This document shows, one piece after another, positions 14,746-56,485 of a stretch of 64,000 nt of DNA. Location of the stretch: the NCBI GenBank assembly GCA_035275265.1, contig DATENC010000025.1, positions 10,230 through 74,229 of the forward strand, given 5' to 3'. Source of the DNA: Burkholderiales bacterium. GTDB taxonomy: Bacteria > Pseudomonadota > Gammaproteobacteria > Burkholderiales > JACQAP01. Position 1 is the first letter of the stretch, and each line of letters starts with the position of its first letter. A program made the position numbers and the translations under genes. The notes beneath the pieces are model-generated. The model saw only the letters and a program-made list of their open reading frames with translations, did not search any database and was not told the DNA's origin.

Positions 14746-16131
14746 TCAGTAGGCATTGCGGTCTTTGAATACGATCGTGACCGTCCTGAACATGATCCAG
14801 AAGTCCATGGCAACTGACCAGTTGCGCATGTAATCCAGGTCGTATGCCACCCGCGACTGCATTTTTTCCACGGTTTCCGTTTCGCCGCGATAACCGTTGA
14901 TCTGTGCCCAGCCGGTAATACCCGGCTTCACCTTGTGGCGAATCATGTACCGCTTGATCACCTTGCGGTATTGCTCGTTTAGGGCGACGGGATGCGGCCT
15001 CGGGCCGACAATGCTCATTGTTCCCTGTATGACATTCAAGAATTGGGGCAGTTCATCCAGAGAGGTGCGGCGCAGAAAAGCTCCGAGGGGCGTGACTCTG
15101 CTGTCATGTCGCTTTGCCTGCCTGAACACCGAATCTCCGTCTTCGGCCACGGTCATGGACCGGAACTTGTAAACCATTATTTCCGCACCGTCGAGGCCGT
15201 ATCGCCGCTGCTTGAATATTGCCGGTCCGCGGGAAGTGGCCTTGACACTTAGCGCGATCACCAGCATCAAGGGCCAGATGAGCAACAGCACAAGGCTCGC
15301 GAAGAAGATGTCTGTCAGACGCTTGAGGATGCTGTTGAAGCCTAAGAATGGAGAATCACAGATTGCAACGACCGGAATACCCTCGAGCTCATCGAATCTG
15401 GCCTGAATCAGATCGAAGACAAAAATATCGGGCACAAAATAGATGGAGGCAGTGGTGTCACCCAACTCGTCCAACATCTTCATGATGCGCGGTCTAGCAA
15501 TCATTTGCAGAGTTATATAGATCATGCTTACGGAGTGCTCGCGGATCCATGCCGGCATGTCCGCGATCCTGCCAAGCAGAGGACCGCCGCCGCTTTCCAG
15601 CCGTGTTGGATGTCGGTCGTCGAAAAAGCCCACAAACTCTATACCGAGGTAAGGATCATTCTCAACTTTCTGCGCCAATTTGAATCCCAGCGCATTCGCA
15701 CCCACCACAACCATGGAAGCAGCTCTGGCATTTCCGCCCATCATCTTCTCTACGAGATAGCGGAAAGCAATATGCACGACGACCAAGGCAAACGGAGTAA
15801 CGAGAAACCAGGTGACCATCACCTTTCGCGAAAAATGTGCGGAGAGTTTTGTCGCAAATCCGAGGAACAATACGATCCCGACTATAGTGAGCCAGTGGAG
15901 CAAAACCTTTTTGCCCGCCGGTGTCGGCCGCAGACCGCGCCATGATCGAAACACGTCGACATCGTCGAATAACTGTGTGGCGATCAGGAAAACGAGGATT
16001 GCGAGTGCCACGTAGTGGCCCGCGAAGACCTCGCCGAATACGTATATGGACACGATAAATGTCGCGACAATGGTCGCCGGACTCAGCAGGCTTTTTATGA
16101 GCGTAACTGAGGGCAATTCACCCGTTACCAT
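14746..16131 (-). CDS. undecaprenyl-phosphate sugar phosphotransferase (priming glycosyltransferase, WcaJ/EpsB-like)
   Basis: C-terminal bacterial sugar transferase domain (KRLTDIFFASLVLLLIWPL ... GPRPHPV ... KPGITGWAQINGYRG). ATG 16131 is preceded by AAAGGAG. The longer ORF to 16380 looks noncoding. Confidence 0.85.
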   Translation of the reverse strand: MVTGELPSVTLIKSLLSPATIVATFIVSIYVFGEVFAGHYVALAILVFLIATQLFDDVDVFRSWRGLRPTPAGKKVLLHWLTIVGIVLFLGFATKLSAHFSRKVMVTWFLVTPFALVVVHIAFRYLVEKMMGGNARAASMVVVGANALGFKLAQKVENDPYLGIEFVGFFDDRHPTRLESGGGPLLGRIADMPAWIREHSVSMIYITLQMIARPRIMKMLDELGDTTASIYFVPDIFVFDLIQARFDELEGIPVVAICDSPFLGFNSILKRLTDIFFASLVLLLIWPLMLVIALSVKATSRGPAIFKQRRYGLDGAEIMVYKFRSMTVAEDGDSVFRQAKRHDSRVTPLGAFLRRTSLDELPQFLNVIQGTMSIVGPRPHPVALNEQYRKVIKRYMIRHKVKPGITGWAQINGYRGETETVEKMQSRVAYDLDYMRNWSVAMDFWIMFRTVTIVFKDRNAY

Positions 16132-49229: not shown

Positions 49230-50619
49230 GCACATCGTCTTCCTGACCGGCCGGCTCGCCGAGCGGAGCCTCAATCGCGTGATCGAGTCGATGCAGCCGG
49301 CGCCCTTCAGGCACACCGTCCACGTCCTGTCGATTCAAGTGGCCGGACTGATGACCTCGGAAATGATCCGGCGCAGGCTGCCGGATGCGCTCGGCGCCAG
49401 CCGGGTAATCGTGCCGGGACGTTGCCGCGGCGACCTCGAACCCTTGAGCGTGCATTTCGGCGTGACGTTCCAGCGCGGGCCCGACGACCTCAAGGACCTT
49501 CCGCGTTTCTTCGGCCGCGAAGCAAGGCCGCTGGATCTGTCGAAGCACGACGTGCGCATCTTCGCCGAAATCGTGGACGCCCCGAACATGAGCGTCGAAG
49601 CGATCATCGAACAGGCCAGCGCCTATCGCGATTCCGGCGCGGACGTGATCGATCTTGGCTGCCTGCCGCAGACTCCGTTCCCGCATCTGGAGGAATCCAT
49701 CGCCGCGCTGCACGCCGCCGGTTATCAGGTAAGCGTGGATTCGATGGACGAGGACGAGCTTCTCCGCGGCGGACGCGCGGGCGCTGATTTCCTGCTTTCG
49801 CTGAAGAACGAGTCGCTTTGGATCGCCGACGAGGTCGCCTCGACGCCGGTGCTGATCCCGTCGAAGGCCGGAAATCTGCGCTCGCTTCTGCGCGCGATCG
49901 AAGCGATGGACAAGAGGGGGCGCGCCTATCTCGCCGACCCGATTCTCGACCCGATCCACTTCGGCTTCACCGAATCGCTGATGCGTTACCGCGAACTGCG
50001 CCGCCGGCTGCCGGAACTGCAGATCATGATGGGCACTGGCAACCTGACCGAACTGACCGATGCGGATACGCTGGGCATGCAAGCGATCTTGATGGGCATA
50101 GTTTCCGAGTTGCGCATCACCAACATTCTCACGACCCAGGTGAGCGCGCATGCATCGGGTGTGGTGCACGAGGCAGACGCCGCGCGGCGCATGATGTATG
50201 CCGCGCGAGAAGCCGACGATCTGCCGCGAGCCTTCGGCGAAGCGCTACTGGCATTGCGCTCGCTGGACCCCTTTCCGTACAGCGCCGAAGAGATCGCCGC
50301 CACCGCTGCCGCAATCAAGGACCCCAGCTTTCGTATCCAGATCAGTCCGGAGGGGCTGCACGTCTACAACCGCGATGGACTGCGCACCGCCACCGATCCG
50401 TTCAAGCTGTTCCCGCATCTCGGCCTCGAGGCCGATGGTTCGCATGCCTTCTATATCGGAGTGGAACTGTCGCGGGCGCAGATCGCCTGGCAGTTGGGAA
50501 AACGCTACGTACAGGATCAGGAACTCGAATGGGGTGCGGCGCAGCTACGCCGCAGCGACGGTTCCGAAGCGCAATGCGCGCCGGCGCCAGACGGCGAGAA
50601 AGCCAAGGCCGCATCGTGA
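49222..50619 (+). CDS. dihydropteroate-synthase-like protein (H4MPT biosynthesis-associated)
   Basis: Pterin-binding TIM-barrel region (GADVIDLGCLP ... VSVDSMD ... ILDPI). ATG 49222 overlaps the flavoprotein gene's end by 8 nt. Confidence 0.7.
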   Translation: MDEHIVFLTGRLAERSLNRVIESMQPAPFRHTVHVLSIQVAGLMTSEMIRRRLPDALGASRVIVPGRCRGDLEPLSVHFGVTFQRGPDDLKDLPRFFGREARPLDLSKHDVRIFAEIVDAPNMSVEAIIEQASAYRDSGADVIDLGCLPQTPFPHLEESIAALHAAGYQVSVDSMDEDELLRGGRAGADFLLSLKNESLWIADEVASTPVLIPSKAGNLRSLLRAIEAMDKRGRAYLADPILDPIHFGFTESLMRYRELRRRLPELQIMMGTGNLTELTDADTLGMQAILMGIVSELRITNILTTQVSAHASGVVHEADAARRMMYAAREADDLPRAFGEALLALRSLDPFPYSAEEIAATAAAIKDPSFRIQISPEGLHVYNRDGLRTATDPFKLFPHLGLEADGSHAFYIGVELSRAQIAWQLGKRYVQDQELEWGAAQLRRSDGSEAQCAPAPDGEKAKAAS

Positions 50620-51188
50620 TCCTGGAAACCATCATTACCACCCGCGACGAATTGGGCCGCGATCACATCGCGCCGATGGGAATCCGCGAAAAGGACGAAT
50701 TCATCGTGTTGAGCCCCTTCCGGCCATCGGCAACGCTGGAGCACGTCCTGCGCGAGAAATGCGCGGTAGTGAACTATACCGACGACGTGCGCATCTTCGC
50801 CGGTTGCCTGACCGGACGCTATGACTGGCAGACCGTTCCGGTAGTGCATCTTCCTTGCCGTCGCCTGGCAGGGGCACTCGCGCACGCGGAGGTGAAACTG
50901 GAGCGCGTGGAGGACGACGCGACCCGTCCGCGCCTGTATTGCCGTGAACTCGCCCGCGAAACCCATGGTGCGTTTCGCGGCTTCAACCGCGCACAGGCGG
51001 CGGTAGTCGAGGCCGCGATACTGGTAAGCCGGCTCAACATGCTGCCGCAGGAGAAGATCGACACGGAGATGGCCTACCTCAGAATCGCGGTCGAGAAAAC
51101 CGCGGGGCCGCGTGAACTCGAAGCCTGGGGCTGGCTCACCGCCCGGATCGAGGAGTTCCGCGTACGCGACAAGGAACGGTCGGCATGA
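50616..51188 (+). CDS. DUF447-like protein (H4MPT cluster-associated)
   Basis: ILETIITTRDELGRDHIAPMGI, as in DUF447 flavin-reductase-like proteins. GTGA overlap upstream and ATGA overlap downstream. Confidence 0.65.
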   Translation: MILETIITTRDELGRDHIAPMGIREKDEFIVLSPFRPSATLEHVLREKCAVVNYTDDVRIFAGCLTGRYDWQTVPVVHLPCRRLAGALAHAEVKLERVEDDATRPRLYCRELARETHGAFRGFNRAQAAVVEAAILVSRLNMLPQEKIDTEMAYLRIAVEKTAGPRELEAWGWLTARIEEFRVRDKERSA

Positions 51189-51886
51189 CGGCGATGCTCG
51201 CAAGCGTGCGCACCCTCGACGAGGCGCTGTTCGCGCTCGAAGCCGGCGCCGATTTCATCGACCTCAAGGAACCATCGCAAGGTGCACTCGGCGCACTCGA
51301 TCATGCGGCAGTGCGAGTGTGCGTGAATGCAATCGGCGGACGCCGGCCAGTCAGCGCTACGATCGGTGACATCGTTTCCATGCAACCGCGTGAGATGGCC
51401 ACCGCGGTGGAGCGCATGGGCGCAACCGGCGTGGACTACATCAAGATCGGTTTCTTTGTCCATCCTCGAACTTTCGACTGTGCTGCGGCGTTGAAAACGC
51501 TGGCGTGCAGGACGCGACTTGTCGCCGTAATGTTTGCGGACGAAACCTACGATCTCGCGCTTGTTGACGCTCTCGCCAACGCGGGCTTTGCCGGCGCGAT
51601 GCTGGACACCGCACACAAGACTGGCAAGACGCTGCGCGACTGCCGCAATGAAGAAGAGTTCCGGGAGTTTGTGAATCGAGCCAGAGCCCATGGACTTCTT
51701 TCCGGCCTGGCTGGCTCACTGCGCAAGGAAGATATCGAGCCACTCCTCAAGATCGAGCCAGACTATCTCGGGTTCCGTGGTGCGCTGTGCTCACGATCCA
51801 AACGGAACCAGAATCTCGATGCGGAAGCTTTCGCCAGGATTCGAAGCGCTATTCCAGATTTGGAATGTATTGGCATCACTCAATAA
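51185..51886 (+). CDS. MfnB-like (5-formylfuran-3-yl)methyl phosphate synthase (DUF556)
   Basis: MLASVRTLDEALFALEAGADFIDLKEPSQGALGAL and a KIGF motif, as in MfnB-family aldolase-fold proteins. Confidence 0.7.
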   Translation: MTAMLASVRTLDEALFALEAGADFIDLKEPSQGALGALDHAAVRVCVNAIGGRRPVSATIGDIVSMQPREMATAVERMGATGVDYIKIGFFVHPRTFDCAAALKTLACRTRLVAVMFADETYDLALVDALANAGFAGAMLDTAHKTGKTLRDCRNEEEFREFVNRARAHGLLSGLAGSLRKEDIEPLLKIEPDYLGFRGALCSRSKRNQNLDAEAFARIRSAIPDLECIGITQ

Positions 51887-51910
51887 GGCACCTTAGACCG
51901 ATCCTGTTTT

Positions 51911-52174
51911 TCATCGCGCGTCCCCTGCTTCATCTTCGATTCGGTTGACGACTTTTATTCCGCGGCTGCCTAGCTCCGCAGCTAGGCGGATCACAAACCT
52001 TCGGTCTGCCTGCTTGAGCAATGCGTGTGACTCGGCCGGCGTCCGATACGTCACCGTCCGATGGAGCGTGCGAACAGCAAGTGTTGTACGGTCATGTAGG
52101 CTTTTGAATCCAACAAATGCCACGTAGAACACCAAAGGCACCACGATGAACCCGATAATCGCTTGGCCTATCAA
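51911..52174 (-). CDS. cassette ORF: small protein with an N-terminal TM helix
   Basis: 87-aa ORF (TTG start in the ORF track). IIGFIVVPLVFYVAFVGF hydrophobic segment. The stop lies 12 nt before a GTCTAAG (R''-like) heptamer. Confidence 0.4.
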   Translation of the reverse strand: MIGQAIIGFIVVPLVFYVAFVGFKSLHDRTTLAVRTLHRTVTYRTPAESHALLKQADRRFVIRLAAELGSRGIKVVNRIEDEAGDAR

Positions 52175-52248
52175 GAATGGAATTGATATCGCTAAAGCGG
52201 ACGCCGCACAAAGAAGGCCAACTTTCCATCCTCCGCGGGAATAGGGGG

Positions 52249-52458
52249 CTAGCGTAACTCAGTTATCTCAGCCAATGGAACGCGCTCCCAATACGTGCGG
52301 AAGGGAAAGAGATAACGCCACAAATAGAAGGCCCGGTCAGTAATTGCCGCCGCGAAATCGACCGAGCGGTGGAACGTGCCGTTGACGTCCGTGAAAATCA
52401 CCGACTCGCCCACATCGAGCGGTAGCTGGGTAAAGGGACGGCCGTGATACATGCTCAT
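52249..52458 (-). CDS. cassette ORF: small soluble protein, unknown function
   Basis: ATG 52458 lies 3 nt after the GTTGGCC core (GTTGGCC-ttc-ATG). About 69 aa. Confidence 0.45.
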   Translation of the reverse strand: MSMYHGRPFTQLPLDVGESVIFTDVNGTFHRSVDFAAAITDRAFYLWRYLFPFRTYWERVPLAEITELR

Positions 52459-52461
52459 GAA

Positions 52462-52551
52462 GGCCAACGTTCTCAGTAACCGGCGCGTGCGGCCGGGTAC
52501 ATGCAAGGCACAGCACCCGCGCGCGCCTCCGCATTGACTGAGAAGTTAGAC
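52462..52551 (-). repeat. attC-like site (90 bp)
   Basis: Minus strand reads GTCTAAC ... GTTGGCC. Inner arms TTCTCAGT/ACTGAGAA pair perfectly, with a 1-nt spacer asymmetry. Confidence 0.6.
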
Positions 52552-52577
52552 AGCATTTGAGCCATCGGTAAAGGCTA

Positions 52578-53081
52578 TTAGACTCCGAGACGACGCCACA
52601 CGGTGTGGGCTCCCAGTACAGGCAGTACCAGCACCGAGATCCACGCGACGATGAACGCAATCGGCCGCCAAGCATCCGGCAGAAGGCCACCGTGGGACTC
52701 GCCGAGCAGGAGCGCAATGATGAAGGCCACCACACCAACGACACACAGCAGCCCCAGGTACGCGAGAACCGTCAGGAACCACCTCATGCCCGCTGACTGC
52801 ACCCTCATTGGATAAGCGCGAAGGATTCTGGCGCCGAGGTTGAAGATGCCCCAGAAGTAGAAAAACTGCGCGACGGAGCCGAAAAAGTAGGCGCCGTCGG
52901 CGGTTCCAGTCGTCCTGGCTGCTACCAGCATTGTGAGCAACGCAGGCCAGAACGCCGCAACAGCGATTCCACGCAGGAAAAAACCCGGGCCGCGCGCAAC
53001 ATAGTCGTACAACATGACGCCGATGACACCGCCGGCAATGGCTATCGGCACCACGATGAGTCCTACCTTGACGGCTTTCAC
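52578..53081 (-). CDS. cassette ORF: polytopic membrane protein, unknown function
   Basis: 167 aa with about five hydrophobic helices. GTG start, 80 nt after the GTTAGAC core. Confidence 0.6.
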   Translation of the reverse strand: MKAVKVGLIVVPIAIAGGVIGVMLYDYVARGPGFFLRGIAVAAFWPALLTMLVAARTTGTADGAYFFGSVAQFFYFWGIFNLGARILRAYPMRVQSAGMRWFLTVLAYLGLLCVVGVVAFIIALLLGESHGGLLPDAWRPIAFIVAWISVLVLPVLGAHTVWRRLGV

Positions 53082-53154
53082 GAGTGTGCCGGCCTGCGAT
53101 CCGGGAAGGTTTTGGACTCCTCGTATTGACCGTTACGCGCCATATTCATGTGCT

Positions 53155-53211
53155 GTCTAACGTCGTGGTGAACGGCGGGCCCTGCCCATCCGTTCCACCC
53201 AAGGGTTAGGC
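53155..53211 (-). repeat. attC-like site (57 bp)
   Basis: Minus strand reads GCCTAAC ... GTTAGAC. Inner arms GGTGAACGG/CCGTTCCACC pair with one bulged base. Confidence 0.65.
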
Positions 53212-53242
53212 GCTCTGCGGACATCGCGGATTGCTCTTTCAT

Positions 53243-54076
53243 CTAAATACTGATCTCACCGTCAATGACATCTACGACATCGCCGCCGACCCAGACGTCT
53301 TCGGCGTCCTTGCGCAGATGGACGCGACCGGCGCGCTGAAGCGCAGTGCCTTGAGCTGCGACATACGAAGGTTCCGCGAGTCGTGCACCAATGAGCCATT
53401 GGGCGAGGCTTGCGTTGAGGCTGCCGGTGACCGGGTCTTCGTACCAACCGTCGCCTATGAACGCCCGCACCTCGAACGCCGCGCCTTGGCCCGGTTCATG
53501 AGGACCCACCACCCCTAGCTTGAGCGGGTCGAGCGTGACCCAGTCGGGTTTAAGCGAAAGCACCTGACGGGCGGAACGCAGCATTACCGCGCACCAACCC
53601 GGGCCGTTGTCTACCCACTGATGGTGGACTATGTCAGAGGGCTCAAGAGCGAGGGCGCGGGCGATCTTCGCTTGGATCTCAGGCTCAAGTGCGCCAGTGC
53701 GCCGTAAGGGCGGTGCGGCGAATTCAAGGCGCGGACCGTCACAACGCACACGAACGAGGCCGACGCCGCACTCCTGCACGACGACAGTCTGCTTGCGCGG
53801 TTTGCCACCCTTGGCTAGCCAGGAGTGGCATGAGCCCAGCGTGGGGTGGCCTGCAAAAGGAAGTTCGCCGCTGGGCGTAAAGATGCGCACGCGATAGTCC
53901 GCGCCCGGATTCGTCGGCGACAGAAGAAACGTTGTTTCCGATAGATTGGTCCAGCGCGCGAGCGCCGCCATCCGCGCGTCGCTCAGTCCCTCGGCAGCGT
54001 GCACCACGGCGAGTGGGTTCCCGCCCAGTGGATCAGCCGAGAATACATTAACCTGCGTAAAACGAAATGTGCGCAT
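53243..54076 (-). CDS. cassette ORF: PhzF-family isomerase-like protein
   Basis: MRTFRFTQVNVFSADPLGGNPLAVV...LSETTFLL motif of the PhzF family. The ATG lies 11 nt after the GTTAGGC core. Confidence 0.85.
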   Translation of the reverse strand: MRTFRFTQVNVFSADPLGGNPLAVVHAAEGLSDARMAALARWTNLSETTFLLSPTNPGADYRVRIFTPSGELPFAGHPTLGSCHSWLAKGGKPRKQTVVVQECGVGLVRVRCDGPRLEFAAPPLRRTGALEPEIQAKIARALALEPSDIVHHQWVDNGPGWCAVMLRSARQVLSLKPDWVTLDPLKLGVVGPHEPGQGAAFEVRAFIGDGWYEDPVTGSLNASLAQWLIGARLAEPSYVAAQGTALQRAGRVHLRKDAEDVWVGGDVVDVIDGEISI

Positions 54077-54087
54077 ACCGGGGTGGC

Positions 54088-54168
54088 GCCTAACGTCCCG
54101 GTTCTGGCGCAAAGTGCGTGAAGTGCAGCGCCATATGAAATTTGTCGCTCACGAACCGGCTGTTAGGC
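54088..54168 (-). repeat. attC-like site (81 bp)
   Basis: Minus strand reads GCCTAAC ... GTTAGGC. Arms GCCTAAC-gtc-CCGGTTC / GAACCGG-ct-GTTAGGC, plus an inner TGGCGC/GCGCCA stem. Confidence 0.7.
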
Positions 54169-54169
54169 G

Positions 54170-54511
54170 TCATGCCGACGCGCGCGCGCTAAGGCGCGCA
54201 TTGCAATGCGGACAGAACTCTGGACTCAATGCGATCCCGTCTCCCTCCGCAACAAAGGCCTCGCACACTGGGCATCGGTAGCGGTTTTTTATCGTCCTCA
54301 CAATCCGATAAGCTGAGAAGAACGCCATGGCACCAAGAGGAAGAGCGATCGCCCAAAACAAAGCTGGCGCTTGCACCTGTAGATCACCCAAGAACGGAAG
54401 GGCAACAAAGACCGGCAAGATACCGATAGCCCAGAGCAAGCTGTGCCTCCAAACCGCAGAACGCCGTTGTTGAAACTCGACGACAGAGGCGGATGGGTGG
54501 GCGTTAAGCAT
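54170..54511 (-). CDS. cassette ORF: two-TM protein with a C-terminal zinc ribbon
   Basis: 113 aa with two hydrophobic helices, then CPVC...CPHC. GTTAGAC-gtc-ATG at the start; the stop is 1 nt before GCCTAAC. Confidence 0.6.
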   Translation of the reverse strand: MLNAHPSASVVEFQQRRSAVWRHSLLWAIGILPVFVALPFLGDLQVQAPALFWAIALPLGAMAFFSAYRIVRTIKNRYRCPVCEAFVAEGDGIALSPEFCPHCNARLSARASA

Positions 54512-54514
54512 GAC

Positions 54515-54577
54515 GTCTAACGTTCTTAATCAGCTGCGGGCCGCTTTTGGCCGGTTGGCTGCATTGAGGGGTTAAGC
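54515..54577 (-). repeat. attC-like site (63 bp)
   Basis: Minus strand reads GCTTAAC ... GTTAGAC. Arms CTTAATCAGC/GCTGCATTGAG pair with one mismatch and one bulge; central GGCC/GGCC stem. Confidence 0.65.
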
Positions 54578-54818
54578 GCGATTCGTGTAGACCGCGCGTC
54601 ACGGGTCAAGCCATCAGCTTGCCACAGAAAGCTGCGAGGGCAACTACTTCTACCTCAGCTTTCAGCCACCTCTCGGGCTGTCGAAAGACACATACTACCT
54701 TCGGAGCACATCCGGGATCGAAAAATCCCATTCCAAGTGGTGTGCATGAATGATCTTGTTGGTCAGTCCCGAAGATATAGAGATTCGTCCGGTTGCCAAC
54801 TACTTTGGGAGTACTTCC

Positions 54819-55430
54819 TCAGCCACGTATCGGCACACCCACCAGTGTGCAGGATGCCAGAATCTCCCCTGCTATCTTCTGGTCGCTCATACCTAACACG
54901 CGAACATGAAAACGCCCGGGTGAAGTGAATTCCCGAAAAGCGGGATCTACCCAGCCCCGGCGTACCATGTCCTCGATAGGCGGCTGAGTTTGGGAAATCG
55001 CGAAGGATTTGACCAAGAGCAATGCGGTGACATTCAGCTTGTCCGCGAGCCAGGCAGCGAGGCTGTCGGAAGTGACGTTCCAGTTTTCGGGTATCAGGGG
55101 ATCAGCGACGACCATCTTGTAAGGCATCCAGACCGGGACTTGGGTTTTCCTCAGCACCTTGCGAATTCCTTCGATACTGTCCGCGGCAACGAGCCCTGGG
55201 TGCATCGCCGCGAGCAACCGACCGTACTGCTCCATTGCCCGCAGCGCCTTCCGGTGCGCAACGCGATCGTCGAAGTTCTCGCATTTCTGCGCAACGCGCA
55301 CTTCATCAGCCCACGGCCCGCCGCCAGGAACCAGCACGGCCTTGCCCGCACCGGCGGTCGCGATGACTTCGAGCCAGCGCGGCAGGTCTTCGGAGTGGGC
55401 GAGGCTGCCACCAAGTTTGACGACCCACAT
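54819..55430 (-). CDS. amino-acid-kinase-fold (Asp/Glu/uridylate kinase family) protein, C1-cluster associated (possibly MfnE-like)
   Basis: MWVVKLGGSLAHSEDL...AVLVPGGGPWAD motif. Trimmed from the longer ORF (to 55718). Confidence 0.7.
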   Translation of the reverse strand: MWVVKLGGSLAHSEDLPRWLEVIATAGAGKAVLVPGGGPWADEVRVAQKCENFDDRVAHRKALRAMEQYGRLLAAMHPGLVAADSIEGIRKVLRKTQVPVWMPYKMVVADPLIPENWNVTSDSLAAWLADKLNVTALLLVKSFAISQTQPPIEDMVRRGWVDPAFREFTSPGRFHVRVLGMSDQKIAGEILASCTLVGVPIRG

Positions 55431-55432
55431 GC

Positions 55433-56485
55433 TTATCTCCGCTTGCGCAAGCGAGCCTGCGCAAGAATGGCGACTGCCACCGCTGGCGCGCAACTCGACG
55501 CCCCCGATGCGACGTCCGCTGCGGTGTCCACAAGGCCGTCGAAATCCCGGTAGCGCCGGCCGAGTTGGGCGGCAAGTTTTTTGACGAGGAATCTGCCGAC
55601 ACCTGCACCCACGAGCAGCGCACGCTCGGCTATTTCCGCGTGCGAAAGAACGCCGTCGCACGCCTGCCCAATTTTCCAGAGCTGCAGGTCGGCGAGATGG
55701 CGTGCGCACTGCCGCCATGCGGAAAGCGGCGCGGATTCGAGATCGCGCCCAATCATTCGCGCCAGCCGCCGTGCGCTGTCACGCACCGTCTTGCCGCTGT
55801 TGTCCGCGGCGGGAAGTTGGTCCGCACCTTCGGGCAGTTCTCCGGTCAAGCGATAGACGTCGGCAGTGGTCGCGAAGTATTCCGCCATCGGTGCGATCCA
55901 GTTTCCTTCGAACGGAATGCGCTCGGCGAGGGCCATGACCGGCGTGCGCACGATACCGGTATATACGAGCTCCTCGTAGGCGAGGCGCTCGAAGTCGCTG
56001 TGCCCGCGAACAGCGAGCTTGCCGTTGCGGATCGCCACGATGTCGGTGGTGGTGCTGCCGATATCCACGAACAGCGCATCCGGCACCCGGCTTGCCACCA
56101 GTTGAGCGCTAGCCGCCCAATTGGCAGAGGCAACCGCGTCAGGACTCTTTGCTGCACGCTGCGGCGTGAGGAAGCCGCTCAACCCTGCATAGACCAGCGT
56201 CCGGCTGGTAGGTACGCGCTTGCCGAAGCGAGTCAGAATGCCTCTCACCCCTTGCGCCCGGTTCCTGAAAAAATCAGTCAGTTCTCCGGTCATAGTGACC
56301 GCATGCCTTGGGGCGTCGGGTTGCTCTTCGAGTACGTTCTTGACCGCGCGGTCGAGATGCTCCAAGCCCAGCCACAGCGGGCATGGCAACTGGCGCACCC
56401 ACAGGACCTTTCCAGTGCGGTCGACCGCGGCAGCCTTCAGGTGCGCGCCGCCCAGGTCCCATCCGAGAACGATATCAGAGGGCAT
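55433..56485 (-). CDS. hydantoinase/oxoprolinase-like ASKHA-fold protein, H4MPT-linked C1 pathway associated
   Basis: VLGWDLGGAHLKAA and DIGSTTTDIV phosphate-binding motifs. Position in the C1 cluster. Confidence 0.7.
   Translation of the reverse strand: MPSDIVLGWDLGGAHLKAAAVDRTGKVLWVRQLPCPLWLGLEHLDRAVKNVLEEQPDAPRHAVTMTGELTDFFRNRAQGVRGILTRFGKRVPTSRTLVYAGLSGFLTPQRAAKSPDAVASANWAASAQLVASRVPDALFVDIGSTTTDIVAIRNGKLAVRGHSDFERLAYEELVYTGIVRTPVMALAERIPFEGNWIAPMAEYFATTADVYRLTGELPEGADQLPAADNSGKTVRDSARRLARMIGRDLESAPLSAWRQCARHLADLQLWKIGQACDGVLSHAEIAERALLVGAGVGRFLVKKLAAQLGRRYRDFDGLVDTAADVASGASSCAPAVAVAILAQARLRKRR

Follow-up and report, generated by a model that had tools for sequence, protein, structure and literature searches.

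Evidence for an integron gene cassette array without a nearby integrase between two genes of cofactor biosynthesis in an uncultured Burkholderiales bacterium

What kind of DNA separates two cofactor-biosynthesis genes in the genome of an uncultured soil betaproteobacterium, and how did it come to lie there? The question arose in a 64-kb stretch of contig DATENC010000025.1 (hereafter the window, meaning the whole stretch that was analysed), in which about 2.9 kb (51887-54818) between the two genes carries short genes separated by imperfect palindromes. A preliminary description had proposed an integron cassette array lacking its integrase, placed between the stop of an mfnB-like gene (51886, plus strand) and that of a kinase-fold gene (54819, minus strand), and these coordinates were borne out. 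Our results indicate that the region is very probably an integron gene cassette array without a nearby integron integrase, a group of clustered attC sites without integron integrases (CALIN). It is made up of four complete cassettes, each with an attC site, and a fifth that is decayed and has lost its attC site. The element fits the definition of Cury et al. (PMC4889954) on every testable point. That definition asks for two or more attC sites on one strand within 4 kb; here there are four, spread over 2.1 kb of the minus strand.

The four attC sites

The sites are listed below as read on the minus strand, with extrahelical bases in square brackets.

attC_A, 54577-54515, minus strand, 63 nt: R'' box GCTTAAC and R' box GTTAGAC; L'' arm AAT[G]CAGC and L' arm GCTGATT
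attC_B, 54168-54088, minus strand, 81 nt: R'' box GCCTAAC and R' box GTTAGGC; L box GTT[C]GTG[A]GCG / CGCCAGAAC
attC_C, 53211-53155, minus strand, 57 nt: R'' box GCCTAAC and R' box GTTAGAC; L'' arm GGT[G]GAACGG and L' arm CCGTTCACC
attC_D, 52551-52462, minus strand, 90 nt: R'' box GTCTAAC and R' box GTTGGCC; L'' arm AGT[C]AAT[G]CGG and L' arm CCGGTTACT

The boxes, ends and lengths of the four palindromes were exactly as first described. Their ends match RYYYAAC and GTTRRRY strictly in attC_A, attC_B and attC_C, and the R' box of attC_D (GTTGGCC), whose TTGGCC part belongs to cassette 5, is off at one position. The central spacers measure 5 nt on the '' side and 6 nt on the ' side in attC_A, attC_B and attC_D, and 5 nt on both sides in attC_C, as in the attC sites of dfrA5 and estX. 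In the alignment of the second covariance model (R2, below), the extrahelical bases always fall on the '' arm, one at L'' position 4 in attC_A and attC_C and two in attC_B and attC_D. The claim of one common polarity matching the strand of the open reading frames (ORFs) therefore held, since the bulges agree and the minus-strand model scores are higher (21-41 bits with R2, against at most 14.8 for the plus strand). The spacing of the ORFs was also reproduced: the preliminary description gave starts 3-11 nt after the GTT core and stops 1-31 nt before the next RYYYAAC, and we found ATG codons 3, 11 and 3 nt past the core and stops 1, 31 and 26 nt ahead of the next box.

The four sites have a conserved structure and not a conserved sequence. 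Across the four sites, both partners change in seven of the nine L-box pairs, and 90.6% of the R- and L-box cells are paired against 14-40% with the partners slid, in an alignment that was fitted by the model and favours pairing. The geometry 7-5-3-[bulge].../...3-6-7 is the same as in the attC sites of aadA, blaVIM-2, aac(6')-Ib, cmlA1 and dfrA12. When folded as DNA, attC_B gave z = -3.8 on the plus strand and -5.1 on the minus strand; the energy of attC_A was ordinary (z = -0.73). A rigid L-box filter failed to pick up attC_B and attC_D. Bare box pairs (RYYYAAC..GTTRRRY, 45-150 nt apart) occur four times on each strand, eight times in all in the 64 kb, and three of four fall inside 1.5 kb at the array. 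The sole other pair in the window, 15469-15611 (143 nt, 6/7 complementary), was supported by neither attC model and was put down to chance.

Two covariance models were applied, and both drew on attC sites of 12 class 1 integrons on clinical and environmental plasmids (L085-L096 among our loci). The first, independent model (R1) comprised only 14 different attC sites beside intI1 on clinical plasmids, each following a known cassette gene: aac(6')-29a, blaVIM-2, arr-3, aac(6')-Ib, aadB, aadA2, dfrA5, estX, psp, cmlA1, qacL, dfrA27, dfrA12 and gcuF. Nearly all of these training sites consist of a 7-nt R'', 5 nt, an L'' with an extra base at position 4, an L', 6 nt and a 7-nt R'; the spacers are 5/5 in dfrA5 and estX and 4/4 in arr-3. 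MAFFT alignments with misplaced right arms were kept out of the models. The second model (R2) was an R1-guided alignment of clinical sites and environmental ones (from L009, L098, L099, L105 and L107), and it contained no site from the window.

Over the whole window at E <= 10, the sole matches to R1 were attC_A (28.0 bits, E 8.8e-5) and attC_C (24.2 bits, E 8.6e-4); each lies on the minus strand, with ends identical to those proposed. With the filters off, the top four matches to R1 in 50500-56000 were the four proposed sites; attC_D scored 11.6 and attC_B 9.7 bits. The plus-strand readings scored 7.7 and 5.6 bits, 5.6 bits being the value for attC_A. Searched over the whole window with the filters off, R2 gave 41.3 bits for attC_C, 37.9 for attC_A (E 2e-6), 21.2 for attC_B (E 0.013) and 20.9 for attC_D (E 0.015), with E-values ranging from 3.5e-7 to 0.015. 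The score of attC_C is inflated, because R2 was trained on the homologous sites of L098 and L099. The best match after the four sites scored 10.7 bits, and reverse-strand readings reached at most 14.8 bits. On 81 kb of related genomes R2 found nothing under E 0.9. Scans against Rfam (gathering threshold and E <= 10) gave no match, and Rfam has no attC family. The refuting outcome named in the preliminary description, no significant attC-model match or inconsistent strands, was not obtained: the sites were significant on one strand with exact ends (two of four with R1; all four with R2 at E <= 0.015). Taken as a whole, the architecture is significant, as the independent models recover exactly these four palindromes, with exact ends and on one strand.

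The bottom strand of each attC site, which is the plus strand of the window, would fold into a hairpin in which the R box and the L box are paired and the central spacer is not, with one or two bulged L-box bases on the R''/L'' arm. An integron integrase (IntI), a tyrosine recombinase, would recognise this hairpin and would cut between the G and the TT of the R' box. The sequence comparisons show the attC architecture and polarity, the cassette boundaries, the mobility of the same cassettes in other contexts and the absence of intI from the window, whereas recombination competence, read-through expression and the route by which the array arrived are inferred. Homology breakpoints at the GTT core in other contexts are indirect support for recombination at G|TT.

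Cassette logic and the same cassettes elsewhere

The array and its two flanking genes are arranged as follows, in the order of the minus strand.

54819-55430, minus strand: amino-acid-kinase-fold gene (PF00696), the last gene of a co-oriented operon linked to tetrahydromethanopterin (H4MPT)
54578-54818, minus strand, 241 nt: body of cassette 1 or a leader, from the kinase stop to attC_A, with only a 41-aa ORF (54606-54731)
54094-54520, minus strand: cassette 2, with a 113-aa gene (54170-54511)
53161-54093, minus strand: cassette 3, with a gene for a PhzF-family isomerase of 277 aa (53243-54076; PF02567 8e-48, TIGR00654)
52468-53160, minus strand: cassette 4, with a gene for a hydrophobic protein of 167 aa (52578-53081; homologs at 72-84%)
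51887-52467, minus strand: cassette 5, without attC, with a frameshifted gene of about 182 aa (51911-52458)
51887-51910, minus strand, 24 nt: from the cassette 5 stop to the mfnB-like stop, holding GTCTAAG and too short for an attC
51185-51886, plus strand: gene for 4-(hydroxymethyl)-2-furancarboxaldehyde phosphate synthase (mfnB-like; PF04476 1.6e-66), convergent with the array

In an integron array, the TTRRRY of each R' box is already part of the next cassette. A cassette should accordingly carry an R'' box complementary to the R' box on its upstream side. For cassettes 2, 3 and 4 of the window the R'' box complements the upstream R' box at 6/7, 7/7 and 7/7 positions, the last value being that of attC_D. 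At 14 control junctions the mean was 6.7/7 with the upstream box against 5.3/7 with the downstream one. Cassette 1 does not follow this permutation rule, and its boundary is undefined.

The cassettes were also found in other surroundings. Cassette 2 recurs in L105, a 1-kb contig with two further attC matches, where it stands behind a UPF0060 cassette that has a different attC. L105 matches the window from 54525, which is 4 nt before the R' box, through attC_B to the end of the contig; there, too, the 113-aa gene is followed by a homologous attC, whose R'' box GTCTAAC perfectly complements the 5' TTAGAC of the cassette. Cassette 3 is found in L098-L100 at 80% DNA identity; the match begins at the ATG, extends across the 3' spacer and the attC and ends at GTTAG. 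The attC of L098 scores 23 bits. The PhzF gene is flanked in L098-L100 by a Ribonuc_L-PSP gene and by NUDIX or acetyltransferase genes. For cassette 4, the homology of L102 and L103 begins exactly at GTTAGAC (53161), after unrelated sequence. Cassette 5 reappears in L107, where the preceding cassette is that of an aquaporin (MIP) with an attC of 28.8 bits, and the homology there runs from the G of the R' box over 543 nt. Across these contigs the breakpoints are at the GTT core or within 4 nt of it. Finding cassettes 2, 3 and 5 beside different neighbours in unrelated metagenome contigs marks them as mobile. A plasmid search with the whole array returned distant PhzF genes only.

Copies of two of the genes also occur with no attC site. 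A PhzF homolog lies in an operon at L097:389-1222 without attC, and the 167-aa gene has no attC in L101, L102, L103, L109 and L110. At L109:398-1100 the 167-aa gene carries an N-terminal zinc-ribbon extension, and the homology to the window ends 6 nt before the R'' box of attC_D.

Around these homologs we made some further observations. At 5700-10000 of L098 and L099 the PhzF cassette stands amid co-oriented small genes (Ribonuc_L-PSP, acetyltransferase, NUDIX and a 192-aa gene). In L098-L100 the gene content of this run varies by contig, with one clear attC and a weak second one at L098:9547-9636, and the run may be another decayed array. Three direct TTGTTATCC repeats lie upstream of GTTAGAC at L102:860-915 and L103:230-285, in an arrangement reminiscent of attI; beside them, a divergent 213-aa ORF (L102:131-772, minus strand) gave no Pfam match.

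The preliminary description counted five short ORFs in the array, which do not amount to five genes. Its last two are fragments of one gene: the 69-aa ORF (52249-52458) and the 87-aa ORF (51911-52174) are halves separated by a 1-nt deletion (ACTGA-GTTAC), and in L107 the gene is intact as a single 187-aa ORF, 91.5% identical over 543 nt. We read cassette 5 as a pseudogene. The public gene calls split it, and the 113-aa ORF of cassette 2 is absent from the gene calls in both public records of the contig, which agrees with the earlier statement that the structure would be invisible to ORF-based annotation.

The 113-aa protein is hydrophobic in its N-terminal two-thirds and carries CxxC...CxxC motifs in its C-terminal part. 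Its homologs are 81% and 73% identical, and the family to which it belongs comprises small proteins roughly 100-115 aa in length. Searches of the cassette proteins against NCBIfam matched PhzF only, plus a sub-threshold SLATT match (17 bits, cut-off 41), and PADLOC gave no match. The cassette proteins other than PhzF and the 113-aa family have no family match. Cassette 1 holds no convincing gene, and it had no Pfam, NCBIfam or PADLOC match and no homolog in any fetched locus. A 54-aa ORF (53078-53242, minus strand) spans attC_C, and its end overlaps, through GTGA, the GTG at which the 167-aa gene is annotated to start. This leader sequence is conserved in L102 and L103 as well, and where the gene truly starts is uncertain.

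The ends of the array are ragged. The last cassette has no attC, because just 24 nt separate its stop from that of the mfnB-like gene; in these 24 nt no attC model gave a match, and GTCTAAG is not complementary to the TTGGCC that starts cassette 5. Three core-only or degenerate sites had been proposed as markers of the ends, and none of them stood. GTTGGCA (54800), which follows the kinase-fold stop by 18 nt, had no model support and is not complementary to the R'' box of attC_A, and GTTGGCM occurs 24 times in the window. GTTGGCC (52222) is coding sequence of the cassette 5 gene and is conserved in L107. GTCTAAG (51898) was likewise without model support. We also rejected GTTAGGT (54897) as a 5' end of cassette 1, as it falls in the kinase gene, within its conserved C-terminal portion.

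Counted by themselves, the bare box pairs are not significant (8 against 5.5 +/- 3.3 in dinucleotide shuffles). Several observations weigh against reading the region as a cassette array. Sites attC_B and attC_D are weak with R1 (E 0.47 and 0.15 on 5.5 kb). The alignment of R2 has two reverse-oriented rows and two rows homologous to attC_C, and its E-values are rough. The 5' junction of cassette 1 is undefinable and the terminal cassette is without attC, so the array lacks the clean ends expected of a simple insertion. Furthermore, attC_D was seen with the cassette 4 gene in no other context.

Gene setting, integrase search and the junction in relatives

The array lies within a gene neighbourhood of one-carbon (C1) metabolism. 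The operon that ends in the kinase-fold gene also holds co-oriented genes for an ATP-grasp and a hydantoinase-A-like protein, and the neighbourhood further encodes Fae, MCH, Mpt_N and a pyrroloquinoline quinone (PQQ) dehydrogenase. The C-terminal tail of the kinase-fold protein is homologous to the tails of its relatives. For the mfnB-like protein, the closest species representatives are betaproteobacterial metagenome-assembled genomes at 82-83% identity. A 17.9-kb Logan contig is 100% identical to the window along its entire length. The content of guanine plus cytosine (GC) had been called visibly lower in this region; the array is slightly below the window (0.588 against 0.598, with flanks at 0.61-0.62), but a clear drop is confined to cassettes 1, 2 and 5 (0.53-0.565). 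A 19-nt direct repeat (D1) was put down to chance.

The earlier statement that no intI is present in the 64 kb was confirmed for this stretch, which is part of a 280-kb contig. A tblastn search with an IntI1 sequence 100% identical to annotated intI1 genes found no match at E <= 10 in the window, nor in the relatives and the homolog-bearing loci included with them (L102-L110 not covered). A phmmer search (--max) for IntI among 615 stop-to-stop segments in the six frames of the window gave a best E of 0.17. The public Pfam calls, over about 10 kb on each side, include no recombinase and no transposase. A complete integron would have intI, attI and the cassette promoter (Pc) beside the array; here there is no intI, and the conserved kinase gene occupies the upstream position. 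As intI is missing over at least 9 kb to one side of the array and 52 kb to the other, the cassettes are static, and they could be moved only by an IntI acting in trans, whether encoded at another place in the genome or brought in by an incoming element.

In the minus-strand stretch leading from the kinase stop to the first cassette gene, the terminator scan found no terminator-like site. There is one promoter-like match (54799-54772), at chance level, and the counts of promoter and terminator matches are at or below chance. The cassette genes have no obvious promoters, and they lie co-oriented with and directly downstream of the kinase-fold gene. Read-through from the host C1 operon would be the most likely source of any cassette expression.

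The same junction was compared in related genomes, where L006, L008, L009 and L010 retain the convergent mfnB-like and kinase pair. Its content in the relatives is listed below.

L008, 10700-12700, and L010, 10700-12600: a P450 gene, fragmented in L008 and intact in L010
L006, 10700-15400: a methyltransferase-like ORF, together with an ATPase-like one that is large and fragmented
L077, 10700-11850: an ATP-dependent-ligase-like gene
L009, 700-2600, minus strand: IS30, a 175-aa gene, attC at 1802-1707 (30.7 bits), a DUF3024 gene, attC at 1328-1263 (29.2 bits) and a DUF2784 gene

None of the array ORFs of the window was found at the junction in L006, L008, L009 or L010, so the case that relatives carry the same ORFs here without palindromes did not occur. 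The comparison for an empty site showed a different insert in each relative sampled. In L009, whose mfnB-like protein is 72% identical, the array has the same orientation relative to its flanks as in the window, and its cassettes are entirely different. IS30 sits between the kinase gene and the array of L009; no attC stands beside the mfnB-like gene, where 85 nt are left. Sites of the attC type were present at the junction in two of the six sampled relatives, and L005 and L006, which are more closely related (82-83% identity), have none there.

These data indicate that the junction of the mfnB-like and kinase genes is a hypervariable hotspot of accessory DNA. It is a rather unlikely idea that, in this uncultured methylotrophic Burkholderiales clade, integron cassettes land at the junction recurrently; if it were true, the arrays of the window and of L009 would have been assembled there independently. 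Under the same reading the junction would act either as an attG-like hotspot or as a platform without integrase, where Pc is replaced by read-through from the C1 operon.

Origin of the array and its place among known elements

The proposed origins of CALINs are insertion at secondary sites, loss of intI and rearrangement. The ragged ends of the present array fit neither a fresh insertion of the attG type nor a simple deletion of intI.

The array may have been formed by insertion at a secondary (attG-type) site, an explanation that we hold tentatively. An IntI acting in trans would have added cassettes serially after the kinase gene, and a later deletion would have taken the terminal attC. The window is free of intI and of intI pseudogenes, the array begins 18 nt past the stop of the host gene, and its size is small, like that of most CALINs thought to be so formed (bioRxiv 10.1101/2022.09.11.507474). 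The second, unrelated array at the same junction in L009 also favours this route, and the orientation permits expression from a resident promoter, as was shown experimentally for genome-inserted cassettes in the same study. However, the expected junctions are missing on both sides. On the right, a complete attC followed by TT and target sequence is expected, and cassette 5 ends 24 nt from the mfnB-like stop; on the left there is no G followed by TTAAGC, the complement of the R'' box of attC_A. Moreover, the sampled relatives offer no empty junction.

It is also possible, if somewhat doubtful, that the array is the remnant of a complete sedentary chromosomal integron that lost intI and attI by deletion or rearrangement and has been decaying since. 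The pseudogene of cassette 5, the missing terminal attC and the ragged ends are signs of decay, and in L009 the IS30 lies exactly where the platform would be. Arrays at one locus in two lineages would fit an old, vertically inherited integron locus, and in Xanthomonas integrons are reported to occupy a conserved chromosomal site (bioRxiv 10.1101/2025.06.18.660453). Against such a remnant, no trace of intI was found in any frame, an intact conserved kinase gene stands where intI and attI would lie, and L005 and L006 are without attC at the junction. In addition, 95% of CALINs have no intI pseudogene nearby (PMC4889954).

That the palindromes are instead repetitive extragenic palindromic (REP) or bacterial interspersed mosaic element (BIME) repeats, terminators or other hairpins with AAC and GTT ends by chance is highly improbable, and a reading of the REP/BIME type is effectively refuted: the chance-level count of box pairs, the ordinary fold of attC_A and the lack of a matching Rfam family would suit it, but no site has a second copy in the 64 kb, the four are mutually dissimilar (just 40-53 identical positions in global pairwise alignments), none of them is among the terminator-like scan matches, models from real attC sites choose exactly these four in a strand-specific manner, and the genes found elsewhere have homology that breaks at the GTT core.

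The cassette array, as the preferred reading, was compared with the known systems. The preliminary description called the structure unusual, a view that the surveys do not support, since CALINs number thousands in complete genomes. Cury et al. counted 279 in 2,484 genomes, 83% of them holding fewer than six attC sites (PMC4889954), and a later count gave 2,961 in 21,105 genomes (bioRxiv 10.1101/2022.09.11.507474). Our array is like the CALINs defined in 2016 (PMC4889954) and by IntegronFinder 2 (PMC9024848) in carrying two or more attC sites on the same strand at distances below 4 kb. It is like them also in its small size, in the lack of a nearby intI or intI pseudogene, and in its cassettes of unknown function that are unrelated to clinical resistance cassettes. 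There is no difference in kind. What is specific to this case is that the array sits in the H4MPT/C1 cluster right behind a host operon, that its terminal cassette lacks attC, and that a relative has a second array at the same junction.

Loot et al. (bioRxiv 10.1101/2022.09.11.507474) described cassettes inserted at attG sites and single attC sites lacking integron integrases (SALINs). As in those, the cassettes here lie outside an integron platform and downstream of a resident transcription unit able to drive promoterless genes; in contrast, the present element has several cassettes rather than one, and its junctions lack a clean G+TTRRRY and attC+TT. With the class 1 arrays, such as aadB-aadA2 and estX-psp-aadA2-cmlA1-aadA1-qacL on the plasmids that supplied our training sites, it shares the R box, the 5/6 spacers, the L-box bulge at position 4, the permutation rule and the order of an ORF followed by its attC in one orientation. 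On the other hand, there is no intI1, attI1, Pc, 3'-conserved segment or resistance gene, and the attC sequences are unrelated beyond the boxes. Sedentary chromosomal integrons at a conserved locus, such as those of Xanthomonas (bioRxiv 10.1101/2025.06.18.660453), are similar in that different lineages have cassette arrays at one junction and differ in their cassettes. They differ from the present case, in which no integrase gene or pseudogene was seen in either lineage and attC sites occur in only two of six relatives.

Taken together, the array is real, and it is an element of a common kind that has already been described; the current understanding of integrons is unchanged by it. The copies of the PhzF gene in L097 and of the 167-aa gene in L109, which stand without attC, are possible before-and-after pairs for the unsolved problem of cassette genesis. 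The variable junction, as a hotspot of gene flux, could be used for studying the origin of CALINs. For the organism itself, the finding suggests that integron cassettes reach uncultured, methylotroph-like Betaproteobacteria of the soil, even within a gene island of core metabolism.

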